In this document: positions 2,201-53,249 of the stretch, one piece after another
Layout of the letters: each line of letters starts with the position of its first letter
How positions within the stretch are numbered: the stretch's first letter is position 1
Assembly: GCA_014360755.1 (NCBI GenBank)
Contig: JACIWX010000003.1
Location: forward strand, 27,678 to 91,677
Origin: Chloroflexota bacterium
GTDB lineage: Bacteria > Chloroflexota > Anaerolineae > UBA2200
Direction: 5' to 3'
Length of the DNA stretch: 64,000 bases
Translations under genes and position numbers: made by a program
Notes under the pieces: model-generated
Databases searched by the model: none
Seen by the model: the letters and a program-made list of their open reading frames with translations, nothing else
What the model was told of the DNA's origin: nothing

Positions 2201-4114
<1,914 letters not shown>

Positions 4115-18312: not shown

Positions 18313-18839
18313 TATGACACCTCCTTTAAGCCTAGCGGATACCTCCGCGCCAGGTCCTGGTAGATGCTCTTGAAATTGGACCACTCTGCTTTATATTCTT
18401 CACTGACCTGTTTGTCCAACAACCTGGCTGGCACGCCCACGGCAATACAGCCATCCGGAACCTCCTGGCCCTGCCGGACGACTGCTCCTTCGCCGACCAC
18501 TGCCCATTCTCCGACCTGAGCCCAGTCGCTGACCACGGATCCCATACCAATTACCGCATGGTCTTTGATGGTCGCGTTGTGTATGACACAGCCATGGCCG
18601 ATAGTCACGTTCCTGCCGATGCGCGTAATCTCACCGGGGCGGGCGTGGATGACGCAATTATCCTCGATACTCGTGCCATCCCCGATGATAATCGTACCAT
18701 AGTCGCCACGCAGACGTGCGCCAGGTCCAATCCAACAATTAGCGCCAATGGTTACCGCACCGATGACATCAGCGGAAGGATGGATATAGGTGTCCTGCCC
18801 TAGTTCTGGTTTGCGTCCCTCGAATTCGTAGATGGCCAT
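18312..18839 (-). CDS. Gamma carbonic anhydrase family protein (hexapeptide-repeat, PaaY/CaiE-like)
   Basis: Left-handed beta-helix hexapeptide repeats with His ligands (IHPSADVIG..., CVIHARPG, IGHGCVIH). Confidence 0.8.
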   Translation of the reverse strand: MAIYEFEGRKPELGQDTYIHPSADVIGAVTIGANCWIGPGARLRGDYGTIIIGDGTSIEDNCVIHARPGEITRIGRNVTIGHGCVIHNATIKDHAVIGMGSVVSDWAQVGEWAVVGEGAVVRQGQEVPDGCIAVGVPARLLDKQVSEEYKAEWSNFKSIYQDLARRYPLGLKEVS

Positions 18840-46504: not shown

Positions 46505-47950
<1,446 letters not shown>

Positions 47951-47965
47951 TTACAATAAGTTAGT

Positions 47966-49786
47966 TCAGTCTAATGGCTCTCCTGATTCATCACCCAGGA
48001 GGTGAGATGGACGGAAAGGAACTGGAAGCAATTCGCGTAAGGTATATACCTTATGATTGCCTGAAACATCCGTTGCCAGGACGCGCATCTCCGGCCCGAA
48101 CTCGGCGAGCACCTGCCGACAGGCACCACACGGTGCTCCCCCGTTCTCAGTAACTACTGCTATGGCAACAAACTCGCGTTCACCATCGCAGACTGCCTTC
48201 AATGCGGCTACTCGTTCCGCACAAACAGTCAAACCGTAAGATACATTTTCGACATTGCAACCGGTATAGACCTTGCCCGAAGCGGTCAAAAGCGCTGCTC
48301 CTACCCGATAGTGCGAGTAAGGTGCATAGGCTTTCTGACGTGCCTCAATCGCCAGGGCAATAAGTTCTTTATCTTCCACGTTTTTCTCCTTGTTCGTTTG
48401 GTGTGGAGATGGATCTGCATCGCTGGCGGCCTCTGTTCCGCTCCCCATCTTGGGCTTCACCCGGGCTGGTACCCCGTAAGCCGTGCTATCCGGCGGTATA
48501 TCGCGGGTGACCACCGAACCTGCCCCAATTCGCGCCCGTGCTCCAATACGCACTGGCGCTACCAACATGGTGTCGCTGCCAATAAATGCCCCATCCTCTA
48601 TCACCGTACGATGCTTTTTAATGCCATCAAAATTGCAGGTAACAGTCCCTGCACCAATGTTTACATCAGCCCCTATCGTAGCATCCCCAATGTAACTGAA
48701 ATGTCCCATCTTTACGCCTGGGCCGAGGTAAGAGGCCTTGACCTCGCCAAAGTTGCCCATGTGCACGCCCTCGGCCAAATGGGCTCCTGGACGCAGGTGA
48801 GCAAAAGGCCCGATGGAGACTTGGTTTTCCACGATTGCGCCTTCAATCACAGAGGCTTCAAGACGGCAGTCATTTCCAATCGTGGAATCGCGGATGATCG
48901 TATTCGGCCCCACCAGGCAGTTCGACCCAATACGGGTAGTGCCTTGTAAATAGGTATTGGGATAGATCACCGTGTCTTGCCCCATCTGCACAGTGGCGTC
49001 AATATAGATGGAAGAGGGATTCACGAGAGTCACTCCGGCACGCATCCAATTTTCGCGGATGCGTTGCCGCACAACCTCCTCAACCTTAGCCAGGTGCAAC
49101 CGATCGTTGACCCCAAGGGTCTCCAGTGGGTCCTCAACCTGGATAGCCTCCACTGCATGGCCTTCGGCTACAGCCATGCCTACCAGATCGGTCAGGTAAT
49201 ATTCGCCTTTTGGGCTGCGTGGCAGCCGTGGTAAATGTGCCCAAAGCCAAGCGGCCTCAAAGCAATAGACGCCGGGGTTTAACTCTTGAATTGCCAATTG
49301 CTCTGGTGTTGCCTGACTTTCTTCGACGATGCCAATCACCCGTCCCTTTGCATCTCGCAGAATGCGACCAAATCCCATCGACTCCTCGTGCACACACGTG
49401 AGCATGGTGATTGGAGTTGAGCGCGTCTCATGAGCCCGAACCAGGGTGTGCAGTGTTGTACCCGAAAGCAACGGCATGTCTCCATACAGCACGAGAACTG
49501 CTTCTGCACGGCCTTCTAATTGCTCGCGTGTCTGAAGCACTGCGTGCCCTGTACCTAACTGTTGTTCTTGAAAAACATAGGTAACGGCGTCACCTAATGT
49601 CTGACGTACCAAGTCCGCTCCGTAGCCCACGACCAGCACAGGTTTCTCTTCACCCAATCCCATTACTGCGTTGAGGACGTATTTGACCATCGGCTGGCCA
49701 GCAATGGGATGCAAAACCTTGGGTAGTTTGGATTTCATCCGTGTGCCTTGTCCAGCGGCCAGTATCACTACCGCCAGCTTGTTCAT
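47966..49786 (-). CDS. glmU: Fusion protein: bifunctional GlmU (GlcNAc-1-P uridyltransferase and GlcN-1-P acetyltransferase) with a C-terminal cytidine deaminase domain
   Basis: A GlmU N-terminus (AVILAAGQGTRMKS, hexapeptide LbH domain) spans about 455 aa. After a ~25-aa linker comes a complete Cdd domain (AYAPYSHYRVGAALL, CAERVAAL, PCGACRQV) in the same frame with no stop. Confidence 0.85.
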   Translation of the reverse strand: MNKLAVVILAAGQGTRMKSKLPKVLHPIAGQPMVKYVLNAVMGLGEEKPVLVVGYGADLVRQTLGDAVTYVFQEQQLGTGHAVLQTREQLEGRAEAVLVLYGDMPLLSGTTLHTLVRAHETRSTPITMLTCVHEESMGFGRILRDAKGRVIGIVEESQATPEQLAIQELNPGVYCFEAAWLWAHLPRLPRSPKGEYYLTDLVGMAVAEGHAVEAIQVEDPLETLGVNDRLHLAKVEEVVRQRIRENWMRAGVTLVNPSSIYIDATVQMGQDTVIYPNTYLQGTTRIGSNCLVGPNTIIRDSTIGNDCRLEASVIEGAIVENQVSIGPFAHLRPGAHLAEGVHMGNFGEVKASYLGPGVKMGHFSYIGDATIGADVNIGAGTVTCNFDGIKKHRTVIEDGAFIGSDTMLVAPVRIGARARIGAGSVVTRDIPPDSTAYGVPARVKPKMGSGTEAASDADPSPHQTNKEKNVEDKELIALAIEARQKAYAPYSHYRVGAALLTASGKVYTGCNVENVSYGLTVCAERVAALKAVCDGEREFVAIAVVTENGGAPCGACRQVLAEFGPEMRVLATDVSGNHKVYTLRELLPVPFRPSHLLGDESGEPLD

Positions 49787-49877
49787 CCCGCCTCCACAGG
49801 AATATGAGTCCAAGAAACCCGTTCTCGCAGGGAAAACGGGTTTCTGAATCGCATTCTAGTACTTTGCGTATAAAGAA

Positions 49878-49948
49878 CTGGGGCGGGAGGGTTCGAACCT
49901 CCGTTAACGGATCCAAAGTCCGCTGTGCTACCATTGCACCACGCCCCA
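49878..49948 (-). tRNA. tRNA-Gln (anticodon UUG)
   Basis: The reverse complement folds as a cloverleaf: acceptor TGGGGCG/CGCCCCA (U1-A72, typical of tRNA-Gln), D stem GTGC/GCAC, anticodon stem GCGGA/TCCGT with loop CTTTGGA, and T arm GGAGG-TTCGAAC-CCTCC. CCA is not encoded. Confidence 0.85.
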
Positions 49949-50016
49949 AAACAATTACAACTTATTGTAACACAAACCAATCATATCTGCAAATGTACCG
50001 AATGATTTAGCGGGGA

Positions 50017-51066
50017 CTAAGCTGCTTTTCGCTGGCGCGACCGCAATTGCCCACATCCTGCTTGGATGTCAATGCCACGTCCCAAACGCACGGTGCTCGC
50101 GATGCCCATGCGATTCAGTTCACGTCGAAATGCCATAATTCGCTCGCGAGTAGATGGCTGATAATCGCATTCAGCAGTGGGATTCAGAGGGATGAGATTC
50201 ACATGGCAGAGCAAGCCTCGCAACAGATGGGCTAATTCCCTGGCTTGTCCTGGGTCGTCGTTAACTCCCTGGATCAGGGCATATTCGAAGCTAATGCGCC
50301 GGCCGGTGCGTTGCACATATTCCTGGCAAGCAGCGAGCAATTCTGCCAAGGGATAACGTTTGTTGATAGGCACTAGACGGTCGCGCAGTGCGTTGTTCGC
50401 TGCATGCAACGAGACTGCCAAACCCACGGAAAGCCCTTCCTGTGCCATACGGCGGATGCCCGGTACCAATCCTACCGTCGAGATAGTGAAGCGCCGTGCA
50501 CCTAAATTGAAGCCGCGATGGTCATTCAAAATTCGTATCGCTTGCCAGGTTGCCTCATAGTTGGCTAATGGCTCGCCCATGCCCATGAACACCACATTGG
50601 TAATGGCTGTCCCTTGCTCTTGCAATTGCCTGGCAAAATAGAGCACTTGGCCCACGATTTCACCGCCGCTCAAATTGCGCTTGAACCCGCTCTGGCCTGT
50701 AGCACAGAAGGGACAACCCAGTGCACAGCCCACTTGGGTCGAGACGCATACCGTATGGCGCCCCTCATAGTGCATGAGCACGCTTTCGATGGTATCGCCA
50801 TCCGGCAACTCCAGCAATACCTTGGTGGTTAAGCCATCCGCAGAAGTGAGGGTTTCCAGAGGCTGCAATGGCTGGATGATCGCCAAGTCGCTCCACTTCT
50901 GACGCAAACCCAATGGTAAATTGGTCATATCGGCAAAATCGAACACCAGCGAGTGGTAAATCCACGCGAAGAGTTGCTGAGCACGGAAGGAAGGCTCACC
51001 CTGCTCAGCAACCCAGGATGCTAGTTGCTCATAAGGCAAGTCCGTGAGTAGAATTTTGGCGCTCAT
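50017..51066 (-). CDS. rlmN: Dual-specificity RNA methyltransferase RlmN (radical SAM)
   Basis: CVSTQVGCALGCPFCATGQ radical-SAM cluster with the RlmN/Cfr family pattern. Confidence 0.9.
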   Translation of the reverse strand: MSAKILLTDLPYEQLASWVAEQGEPSFRAQQLFAWIYHSLVFDFADMTNLPLGLRQKWSDLAIIQPLQPLETLTSADGLTTKVLLELPDGDTIESVLMHYEGRHTVCVSTQVGCALGCPFCATGQSGFKRNLSGGEIVGQVLYFARQLQEQGTAITNVVFMGMGEPLANYEATWQAIRILNDHRGFNLGARRFTISTVGLVPGIRRMAQEGLSVGLAVSLHAANNALRDRLVPINKRYPLAELLAACQEYVQRTGRRISFEYALIQGVNDDPGQARELAHLLRGLLCHVNLIPLNPTAECDYQPSTRERIMAFRRELNRMGIASTVRLGRGIDIQAGCGQLRSRQRKAA

Positions 51067-51869
51067 CCCACAACCCTCTGCCAATCCCGATGTAGAGCAG
51101 CGACATCCTCATAAACCAGATCTGGTACGAGGGGAGAATTTGCTAATTGTTGCTGGTCTGTCACACCGCTCAGGACCAGGATGGTCATTAACCCCAATCG
51201 TTTCCCGCCAAGGATGTCGGTATCGAGACGGTCGCCCAGTATCGCCGTCGTCTTTGGGTCAGTCTGGAGCTTTTGGAATGCGATTTCAAAGATGGCTGGC
51301 TGCGGCTTGCCGATGACCAAGGGAGCAGTATCCGTAGCGGCTTCGATCGCTGCCAAAAGCGCTCCTGCACCGGGAGTCAATTCGCCCTCGGAGGGGAAAG
51401 TTTTGTCGGGATTGGTACCAATGAATTGGGCCCCTGCTCTGATGGCACGGGTGGCGCGCGTCATCTTCTCATAGTCGAACTGGTGATCGAGACCCACTAC
51501 CACGTAGGCAACGTCCGTGTCCTCGCTGAGAATGAACCCTCTCTTTTCCAGCTCCTTTCGCACACCCTGTTCGCCGATCAGGTAGACCTTGGTTCCAGGA
51601 GGAGCAATCTCAGCCAGGTACATAGCCGTAGCTTCTCCCGAGGTCAAAATTTCTTTTTCTTCCACTTGGATGCCCATGCGCGCTAATTTGGCCACATATT
51701 GCGCTGCAGTGAGGGTGGAATTGTTTGTTAATAGGAGAAAGCGCACTCCTATCTGACGTAGGAAACGGAGAAATTCGCCTGCGCCTTGGATAGGGGCATT
51801 TCCGCGGTAGAGGACGCCATCCATGTCAATAAGCAGGCTACGTAGTTGGTTCAACTTAGAAACGGTCAT
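51063..51869 (-). CDS. HAD-IIA family hydrolase (NagD-like sugar phosphatase)
   Basis: DMDGVLY motif I, LTNNS motif II and GDRLDTDI motif IV. Confidence 0.8.
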   Translation of the reverse strand: MTVSKLNQLRSLLIDMDGVLYRGNAPIQGAGEFLRFLRQIGVRFLLLTNNSTLTAAQYVAKLARMGIQVEEKEILTSGEATAMYLAEIAPPGTKVYLIGEQGVRKELEKRGFILSEDTDVAYVVVGLDHQFDYEKMTRATRAIRAGAQFIGTNPDKTFPSEGELTPGAGALLAAIEAATDTAPLVIGKPQPAIFEIAFQKLQTDPKTTAILGDRLDTDILGGKRLGLMTILVLSGVTDQQQLANSPLVPDLVYEDVAALHRDWQRVVG

Positions 51870-51896: not shown

Positions 51897-53249
51897 TCAC
51901 GATGTCATTCGTTTCGTTCGCTCTAAAATCTTTTCATAGTCAGTAGCTGTATCAATATCCCATAGAAATTCTGGGGACTCTACTTCCACTGACACCACTT
52001 TGTCCGGAAAGCGCGCGATGATTTGCCGTCCACCAACGTCTCCTTGCAGATTCTTCAATTCAGGGAAGAGACAACGGTCGAACAGGGCAGGGATGCCCCG
52101 CTGTCCTTGACACTCAGAAGCCACAATGGGCTTTGTCGTGGCATAATAGGCTTCTAGGATGCGCTCCAGTGCCGCTACGGTAACCAGCGGTTGGTCAGCT
52201 AGGACAAAGAGGGCAGCTTCTGCCCGGCGATCAATGGCATCCAGCCCCGCACGTATGGAGGAGCTGATGCCCGCTTCCCAGTTCTCGTTGAATACCATTC
52301 GGCAGTCTGCTGGAATGTGTTCCGCAATCTGTCCTGCAGCGTGCCCCAGAACGACCACCACTTCATCTACACTGATGGCCCTCACCGCTTCCAGCACGTG
52401 CTCGATCATGGTTTTCCCCGCGAGTGGCAAAAGTTGCTTCGGAACCCCGAAACGCTTGGAAGCCCCGGCAGCCAGGACAATCGCTGAAACCTGACGCCAG
52501 CACTCTAAAACCGGGGTATCGGTTTCAGCGGCGCCAATGAGCACCCTTGTCAATGGAGGAGCGCCTTTGATCTGGCGCGCTATCTGGCGGGCACTAGCCA
52601 GGGCATTTGCGCCCTGAACTTTGTTGATAAAAGGCATCACGCGAGCATGAGCAGGCGCTCCTTTGAGTGCTCCTCGTTCATGGATCAAAAGCCTAGCCAA
52701 GGCCGCAGCAGGGATCACTTCTCCGGGTGCCAAGCCTGTCAATTCGGCAACCAATTGCGGGCGGTGAACGGCTTCTTCGCTCAGCGTGCATCCGACCGCA
52801 TCTATCCCCACGATGGGAACGAAAAGGGTGGTAGCAGTAGGGACGACAGGCTCATAAGCAGCGGGAGCCTTGAGCGAACGCCCTCTAGCTCCATCTGCCT
52901 CAACAATCACTGCATCTGCCAGACTCAAAAGCTCTTCAACTAGGTCTGGTTCAATCCCTTTCAGTTTGTTCTCTGCCTCAATCCGCTTGGCAGCCAGTGT
53001 AATCAGGCTATGAAGGCGCAATGTCTCCTTTGCTAGGTGCAATACCTCTACAGGATCGCTGGACAGCACCAAGGCTTCTCCCACTCCAAGGGATGGCGGG
53101 CGTATCATGGTTGTTGTAGTGGCAATGACCCGCCAGCCTTGGCTGGCTAACTCACGGCCCAGGCGGTACATAACGGTAGTCTTTCCCCCTGCGCCCACCA
53201 GGGAGATAACCTCACCTTTATGAACCTGCAATGCCTCCCAGAGCTGCAT
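51897..53249 (-). CDS. Fusion: YqeC-family selenium-dependent hydroxylase accessory domain (N-terminal) and MocA-like molybdenum cofactor cytidylyltransferase (C-terminal)
   Basis: N-terminal ISLVGAGGKTTVMYRL P-loop and CoA-ligase-like fold match the YqeC family. C-terminal AIVLAAGASKRFG...KQLLPL matches MobA-like NTP_transf_3. The start was chosen where a 4-nt overlap couples it to ygfK. Confidence 0.7.
   Translation of the reverse strand: MQLWEALQVHKGEVISLVGAGGKTTVMYRLGRELASQGWRVIATTTTMIRPPSLGVGEALVLSSDPVEVLHLAKETLRLHSLITLAAKRIEAENKLKGIEPDLVEELLSLADAVIVEADGARGRSLKAPAAYEPVVPTATTLFVPIVGIDAVGCTLSEEAVHRPQLVAELTGLAPGEVIPAAALARLLIHERGALKGAPAHARVMPFINKVQGANALASARQIARQIKGAPPLTRVLIGAAETDTPVLECWRQVSAIVLAAGASKRFGVPKQLLPLAGKTMIEHVLEAVRAISVDEVVVVLGHAAGQIAEHIPADCRMVFNENWEAGISSSIRAGLDAIDRRAEAALFVLADQPLVTVAALERILEAYYATTKPIVASECQGQRGIPALFDRCLFPELKNLQGDVGGRQIIARFPDKVVSVEVESPEFLWDIDTATDYEKILERTKRMTS

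Follow-up and report, generated by a model that had tools for sequence, protein, structure and literature searches.

A recurrent in-frame fusion of glmU and a cytidine deaminase gene in Anaerolineae, with a probable internal start site

The window analysed here is a 64-kb stretch of DNA from a bacterium of the Anaerolineae (Chloroflexota; assembly GCA_014360755.1, contig JACIWX010000003.1, positions 27,678 to 91,677), in which a single open reading frame (ORF) encodes one complete GlmU and one complete cytidine deaminase (Cdd) of the homotetrameric type (T-CDA), joined by a disordered tether (Table 1). An earlier note on this DNA had described the ORF as a true in-frame GlmU–Cdd fusion with a complete Cdd domain, and this was borne out: both halves score above the cut-offs of hidden Markov model (HMM) equivalogs for their families, and the DNA of the junction contains neither a stop codon nor a change of frame. 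The length of 615 residues that it gave is correct for a longer form that starts at TTG (47966..49813, minus strand); the interval 47966–49786 given with that length belongs instead to a form of 606 residues, and the gene lies on the minus strand. The 606-residue form begins MNKLAVVIL at an ATG that has GGAGG 4 nt upstream, and is the form deposited publicly (P0001).

Table 1. Features of the fused gene and its immediate surroundings in the window
Feature	Position	Strand	Remarks
Fused glmU–cdd ORF	47966..49786	minus	606 aa + stop; ATG 49786..49784, TGA 47968..47966; identical to public P0001
GlmU N-terminal uridyltransferase (nucleotidyltransferase) domain, ~aa 1–230	49097..49786	minus	Pfam NTP_transferase aa 6–216, NTP_transf_3 aa 6–131
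GlmU acetyltransferase domain (left-handed beta-helix) with the C-terminal arm, ~aa 251–445	48452..49036	minus	Hexapep E=1e-29, 5 stretches
Linker, aa 446–469 (KPKMGSGTEAASDADPSPHQTNKEKN)	48380..48451	minus	low-complexity, disordered
Cytidine deaminase module (homotetrameric type), aa 470–606	47969..48379	minus	TIGR01354, NF004064 above cut-off
Internal Shine–Dalgarno AAGGAG (putative)	48386..48391	minus	ribosome-binding site of the ancestral cdd; 6 nt to the internal GTG that follows
Internal in-frame GTG, V470 (putative start)	48377..48379	minus	ancestral cdd start; ATG in orthologue L008
tRNA-Gln(TTG)	49877..49949	minus	upstream of fused gene, between rlmN (50017–51084) and fused gene
proS (prolyl-tRNA synthetase)	46505..47938	minus	directly downstream, 27 nt after fused ORF; same order in fused and unfused relatives

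Residues 1–445 of the 606-residue protein constitute a complete GlmU. The TIGR01173 equivalog (452 positions) matched residues 5–438 at 550.6 bits, as compared with a cut-off of 366.85, and NF010934 scored 550.4 bits against 450; the nucleotidyltransferase fold and the hexapeptide-repeat beta-helix were both recovered by Pfam and in the secondary structure of an AlphaFold2 (AF2) model. The nucleotidyltransferase signature (L-x2-G-x-G-T-x-M-x4-P-K) lies at residues 9–23 (49718–49762) as LAAGQGTRMKSKLPK, and the predicted local distance difference test score (pLDDT) is mostly above 90 over the N-terminal domain. The two-domain architecture, with its LAAGxGTRM...PK signature and left-handed beta-helix, is that of canonical GlmU (TIGR01173), but canonical GlmU has ~450 residues, whereas the window protein carries a further C-terminal extension of 160 residues, composed of the tether and the complete Cdd. 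GlmU of M. tuberculosis has a short C-terminal tail and is not known to carry an extra enzyme domain. The linker measures 24–30 residues. In the AF2 model, made with a 50-sequence alignment (A1), residues 439–467 have pLDDT below 50, while the GlmU and Cdd modules are confidently predicted and the first helix of Cdd begins at residue 472; one peptide that spans the junction is TEAASDADPSPHQTNK.

From V470 onward, the protein aligns end to end with the homotetrameric cytidine deaminases PDB 2D30 (B. anthracis), 8X6U, 1MQ0 (human CDA) and 1JTK (B. subtilis Cdd), with E=1e-36 to 1e-34, and the module has the same length, fold family and zinc and catalytic motifs as the B. subtilis, B. anthracis and human enzymes. 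TIGR01354 (cyt_deam_tetra) matched residues 474–596 over model positions 2–126 of 126 at 139.9 bits (cut-off 113.65), and NF004064 (Cdd) scored 143.5 bits (cut-off 74); Pfam, run on the whole protein, returned NTP_transferase, Hexapep and dCMP_cyt_deam_1, and pLDDT over the module is ~90–97. Both zinc motifs to which the earlier note had drawn attention are present, CAER at residues 522–525 (48212–48223) and PCGACRQ at 552–558 (48113–48133), together with CNVEN at 510–514 (48245–48259) and LLPVPF at 586–591 (48014–48031); the residues for zinc binding, catalysis (Glu) and ribose binding (CNxEN) are all intact, as is the C-terminal LLPxxF. A degenerate or inactive Cdd remnant is ruled out by the HMM cut-offs, by these motifs and by the selection ratios given below. 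Known T-CDAs are free polypeptides of ~130 residues, whereas the module described here stands in frame behind a trimeric enzyme, so that a threefold symmetry is set against one of four subunits. The locus encodes no free-standing Cdd of ~130–140 residues, since the module is residues 470–606 of a longer ORF; a free form would exist here only if the internal GTG were used.

We considered whether the ORF could be an artefact of assembly or sequencing, or a pseudogene, so that two genes separate in reality only look joined because a stop is missing or the frame has shifted. The window derives from a metagenome-assembled genome (MAG), one orthologue (L094) is frameshifted in the N-terminal part of GlmU, and a further fused candidate, P0276, comes from an indel-ridden assembly. 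Nevertheless, the identical 606-residue protein is present on at least six contigs that were independently assembled from different sequencing runs, a near-identical fused copy occurs in a JGI metagenome (L097), and more divergent fused proteins (88, 87, 83 and 82% identity) derive from a range of other MAGs, runs, samples and assemblers; six further, diverged orthologues hold the frame across a linker of variable length. In codon-aligned pairwise comparisons among five fused orthologues (synonymous divergence, dS, 0.7–1.7), the ratio of nonsynonymous to synonymous divergence (dN/dS) was 0.056–0.086 for the GlmU segment and 0.038–0.152 for the Cdd segment, as compared with 0.3–1.0 for the linker, whose length changes only by whole codons (all indels are multiples of 3). 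Both enzyme modules are under strong purifying selection and the linker is near neutral. We regard the artefact reading as effectively refuted and hardly credible. The suggestion in the earlier note of a lost stop between two adjacent genes consequently fails as a sequencing or assembly error, while it stands as an account of evolutionary origin, given that unfused relatives carry the genes side by side.

The proposal that relatives be searched for the same fusion gave a clear division among the database matches: GlmU relatives of at least 82% identity are all fused, those of 79% or less are all ~450 residues long, and no unfused GlmU of at least 80% identity was present. The outcome that the earlier note named as refuting the fusion, homologues that are uniformly separate genes, was thus not observed, separate genes being confined to the more distant relatives. 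Two observations concern individual orthologues. In a sixth fused orthologue, L094:3006–4836 (P0114, GCA_964416415.1), the GlmU part is split into two overlapping ORFs (258 and 359 residues) by a frameshift that is either an assembly error or the mark of a pseudogene; the GlmU–Cdd junction and the internal Shine–Dalgarno (SD) sequence and start are intact there. Run SRR11866724 contains two fused alleles, P0005 (L009, 82% identity) and the window's own P0001 (L101), so at least two fusion-carrying populations of Anaerolineae coexist in that sample.

The closest unfused relatives, L001 (78% identity) and L003 (72%), have a separate cdd of 130 or 127 codons directly 3′ of glmU, and the order in L001, glmU, cdd, proS, includes the same downstream gene as in the window. 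Roughly 45 loci were classified from GTDB species representatives, essentially all of them Anaerolineae/Chloroflexota MAGs. In ~20 of them a gene for a CBS/CorC membrane protein stands between glmU and cdd, and in another ~20 the two genes are adjacent and separate. The loci with separate neighbouring genes comprise L001, L003, L012, L013, L014, L052 and about 15 further species representatives. In many of the adjacent pairs the stop and start codons overlap or abut, an arrangement typical of translational coupling. A TAG stands immediately before an in-frame ATG between the genes of L013, L014 and L052, while in L012 and L096 a single in-frame stop, placed at a different codon in each, interrupts what is otherwise an open spacer homologous to the window linker (the stop is TAA in L012:1139–1209 and TGA in L096, minus strand, ~3050–3110 in reverse-complement coordinates). 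Several relatives are one mutation short of fusion, and low-level readthrough of the stop in L012 and L096 would yield the fusion protein there too. The standalone Cdd of L001 and of L003 starts with (L/V)EDK(D/E)LI at the same position as V470-EDKELI in the fusion, indicating that the linker consists of the acidic tail of GlmU and a former intergenic spacer. In two respects the partners match a Rosetta-stone pair: they are separate and adjacent in related genomes, and the fused frame is conserved in independent genomes under purifying selection. The fusion arose when glmU and cdd, neighbours in a tightly coupled operon, had the stop and spacer between them turned into coding sequence.

The CBS-domain/CorC-type membrane-protein gene lies between glmU and cdd in L020:4076–5620 and ~20 other loci, and recO follows cdd in L004 and L091. 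The Anaerolineae glmU–cdd region resembles the ybeY–corC/cdd–era–recO neighbourhood of other bacteria, which points to loss of corC as the event that made glmU and cdd direct neighbours. The glmU–cdd neighbourhood is conserved in the Chloroflexota loci, but at ~20 non-Chloroflexota cdd loci with roughly 1.5–3 kb of upstream sequence, glmU was absent. At two more distant Chloroflexota loci, from Ardenticatenaceae and ‘Chloroflexia’ MAGs, heptanucleotides repeated in tandem occupy the interval that separates cdd from a GlmU-like gene: CAGTGAA/CAGTGGA in L055:4017–4108 and CAGTAAC/CAGTTAC in L057:3971–4132.

A neighbour-joining tree built from 51 GlmU-domain sequences, with 200 bootstraps, recovered four fused lineages, each nested among unfused relatives. 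Lineage 1 is the window clade (100% bootstrap), lineage 2 comprises P0026 and L004 (P0039) (97% bootstrap), lineage 3 is L017, which stands beside the unfused L015, and lineage 4 is P0065, which stands beside loci of the type with corC between the two genes. The linkers of the four lineages are unrelated, and this, together with the tree, rules out a single origin for all of them. Within Anaerolineae, glmU and cdd have merged on at least four independent occasions. We left P0276 out of this count as a possible fifth lineage, its assembly being riddled with frame errors. Within the immediate neighbourhood of the window clade, a single fusion followed by later fission could account for the distribution, in which case L012 and L096 could be secondary fissions (revertants) of a fused ancestor. 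A metagenome pattern scan yielded only four loci, and the crown clade is represented by a small sample of seven sequences. A junction-spanning query against a representative library listed no full-length fusions, probably because they are clustered there under unfused GlmU representatives, and served only to reveal other fusion partners of Cdd; a large-database search with the same segment omitted full-length fusions, apparently because it favours targets of similar length, and gives no count of fusion clusters.

Recurrence is one of two results that go beyond the earlier note; the other is that the fused gene has kept the ribosome-binding site and start of the ancestral cdd. AGGAGA and (G/A)TG are invariant in all seven crown-clade sequences, the GTG-to-ATG difference in L008 being one that preserves a start, whereas only 26% of the remaining linker columns are invariant, with a longest invariant run of 3. 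A naive calculation gives P ~3e-4 for the invariance of the six SD bases, a value that takes no account of the shared phylogeny of the sequences. Both third-codon positions that are synonymous inside the SD carry G in 7/7, as compared with a pooled usage of 52% GAG and 48% AAG. The same motif and spacing are found in the unfused L001, L012, L095 and L096, and the internal AAGGAG-N6-GTG is comparable with the signal of proS in the window, AAGGAG-N7-ATG (SD AAAGGAGAGCATCC-ATG). Lineage 2 independently retains GGAGG/AGGGAGG-N5-7-ATG. The domain boundary thus carries an in-frame start codon and a suitably spaced SD, both varying less than the linker around them, and the mRNA probably gives two products, the 606-residue fusion and a free Cdd of 137 residues from V470; the latter would equal a normal T-CDA.

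Production of a second protein from within a longer ORF has precedents. Cas11 is made from within cas8 by internal in-frame initiation (PMC11899642), and internal starts have been mapped genome-wide in E. coli (bioRxiv 10.1101/520783). The likeness to Cas8/Cas11 lies in a conserved in-frame SD and start at a domain boundary and in a short product predicted to assemble with the long one; the fused gene differs in that its short product is predicted from sequence and in that its origin is a recent fusion of two genes that has retained the downstream initiation signals.

The fusion poses a concrete assembly problem, that of a trimer joined to an obligate tetramer, for which the retained internal start suggests a solution. 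Established structures show GlmU to be a trimer held through its beta-helix, while Cdd of this type is active only as a tetramer, because neighbouring subunits jointly form its active sites. Fusing such a domain to a trimer leaves no closed arrangement, and therefore either free Cdd completes the tetramer or tetramers bridge trimers. Read from the ATG at 49786, the gene would specify GlmU tethered by ~25–30 disordered residues to a complete tetramer-type Cdd; a GlmU trimer could then carry three tethered Cdd domains, with a free Cdd as the fourth subunit (‘3 tethered + 1 free’), and free product may in this way ease the mismatch. If free Cdd were not made, tetramers would be expected to bridge several trimers, giving a 12-mer at minimum or something larger. 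The GlmU part would turn glucosamine 1-phosphate and acetyl-CoA into N-acetylglucosamine 1-phosphate and then, with uridine triphosphate (UTP), into UDP-N-acetylglucosamine (UDP-GlcNAc), and the Cdd module would turn cytidine or deoxycytidine into uridine or deoxyuridine and NH3.

We consider it likely that the locus is a genuine gene fusion, kept by selection, that encodes a predicted trifunctional polypeptide. A serious rival is that the fusion is nearly neutral, a ‘frozen accident’ without advantage: on this view the genes are translationally coupled neighbours with abutting stop and start, loss of the intervening stop is frequent, the fused state comes and goes by drift, and the internal SD and start are leftovers of no further consequence. 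Many relatives lie one mutation from fusion, through a TAG followed by an in-frame ATG or a single in-frame stop, and there have been four independent origins, yet fused clades are small. Several further observations weigh against the preferred reading. The fused arrangement was found in only ~2 of the roughly 45 species representatives, unfused being the majority state, and standalone Cdd proteins at 70–85% identity to the fused Cdd number in the hundreds, both of which are compatible with a nearly neutral fusion. An internal SD and start are absent from lineages 3 (L017) and 4 (P0065), which shows that not every fusion needs free Cdd. The internal SD adjoins the conserved N-terminus of Cdd, and its conservation, measured in sequences that share much of their history, could be partly at the protein level. 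The activities and oligomeric states used throughout are those predicted by homology, and the two reactions have no shared intermediate, substrate or product. Uridine, moreover, is three phosphorylation steps from UTP, making any metabolic coupling indirect. When a linker of 20 codons was evolved neutrally in simulation along the crown-clade tree (six tips; total length 2.69 synonymous substitutions per site), all six tips were free of stops in 2.6% of runs (P=0.026), and in 9.5% (0.095) at half the rate; this suggests that the open frame of the linker is maintained, although the test is suggestive rather than decisive.

What speaks against drift is, first, that over a tree length of ~2.7 synonymous substitutions per site the crown-clade fusion has never reverted and has gained or lost whole codons only, and that the database matches include no unfused GlmU as close as its fused relatives. 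Second, conservation of the SD and start, synonymous positions included, far exceeds that of the nearly neutral linker around them. On balance, we hold the neutral account to be possible but doubtful, and prefer selective maintenance of the fusion.

The form that such selection might take is less certain. Direct channelling is not expected with uridine three phosphorylations away from UTP, and the absence of a shared intermediate leaves the route cytidine to uridine to UTP to UDP-GlcNAc an inferred one; the link between pyrimidine salvage and the use of UTP that the earlier note proposed is nevertheless plausible. The likely benefit would be fixed co-expression and co-localization of cytidine salvage with a major consumer of UTP, rather than substrate channelling. 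A fuller version would take the repeated, independent joining of the two genes as the mark of a functional GlmU–Cdd partnership in Anaerolineae, in which a two-product gene gives a GlmU3–Cdd4 particle or a larger lattice and either places salvage beside a UTP sink or makes the synthesis of cell-wall precursors responsive to nucleosides; we think this unlikely as a whole, although if true it would constitute an unrecognized link between pyrimidine salvage and the supply of UDP-GlcNAc.

Alternatively, Cdd might have been recruited for a non-catalytic or altered role, as a nucleoside-sensing regulator of GlmU, an oligomerization scaffold, or a deaminase with a different substrate, for instance a modified nucleoside or a compound resembling blasticidin. 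Blasticidin-S deaminase shares the fold family (a weaker match, E=1e-11), the mismatch between trimer and tetramer would naturally give higher-order assemblies, and glmU and cdd stay close together across Anaerolineae although no pathway obviously calls for it. The module, however, scores as a cytidine deaminase equivalog above cut-off and retains its zinc-binding, catalytic (Glu) and ribose-binding (CNVEN) residues along with the C-terminal LLPxxF, and the 70–85% identity between fused Cdd and the standalone Cdd of unfused relatives gives no sign of a change of function after fusion. We therefore judge such a change of role very improbable, and retain the reading of a selectively maintained fusion with an ordinary Cdd.

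GlmU–Cdd is, as the earlier note held, a non-standard architecture. Our literature search found no paper describing a fusion of GlmU to cytidine deaminase; the fusion is real, old, recurrent and so far undescribed, although each half, taken alone, is unremarkable within its well-studied family. Nor is fusion of Cdd exceptional in itself, since domain calls on metagenomic proteins place T-CDA with several other partners: a concentrative nucleoside transporter (P0137), pyrimidine-nucleoside phosphorylase (P0188, P0262), TrmO (P0141), NADAR (P0150) and CoA-transferase III (P0183). T-CDA thus tolerates attachment to other proteins; the partner is N-terminal to it in all of these except P0183, where the CoA-transferase follows. 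The concentrative nucleoside transporter is also trimeric. The transporter and phosphorylase act on the same nucleosides as Cdd, a direct pathway logic that GlmU does not offer. Three further proteins, P0121, P0122 and P0271, are tandem double Cdds.

The value of the locus lies chiefly in the evolutionary series to which it belongs, in the question that trimer, tetramer and internal start pose together, and in a correction of annotation. Living relatives preserve every step of the series, from a gene in between, through separate genes, an abutting stop and start and a single in-frame stop, to fusion with or without the old ribosome-binding site. As regards annotation, public records name the proteins only as GlmU, with the result that cytidine deaminase activity is hidden when the metabolism of these Anaerolineae, common inhabitants of digesters and sediments, is reconstructed.

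The 64-kb window contains no second cdd. A scan for promoters and terminators gave no more sites than shuffled sequence yields. A sigma-70-like site with an extended −10 TG, at 49993..49964 just upstream of tRNA-Gln, is a consensus match only; as it lies above the tRNA on the same strand, the tRNA, glmU–cdd and proS may be co-transcribed. Elsewhere in the window, two minus-strand regions give weak GlmU-like matches: a second nucleotidyltransferase-type N-terminal domain at 52110–52496 (28% identity, E=7e-13) and a hexapeptide-repeat protein at 18420–18806 (25% identity, E=7e-9).

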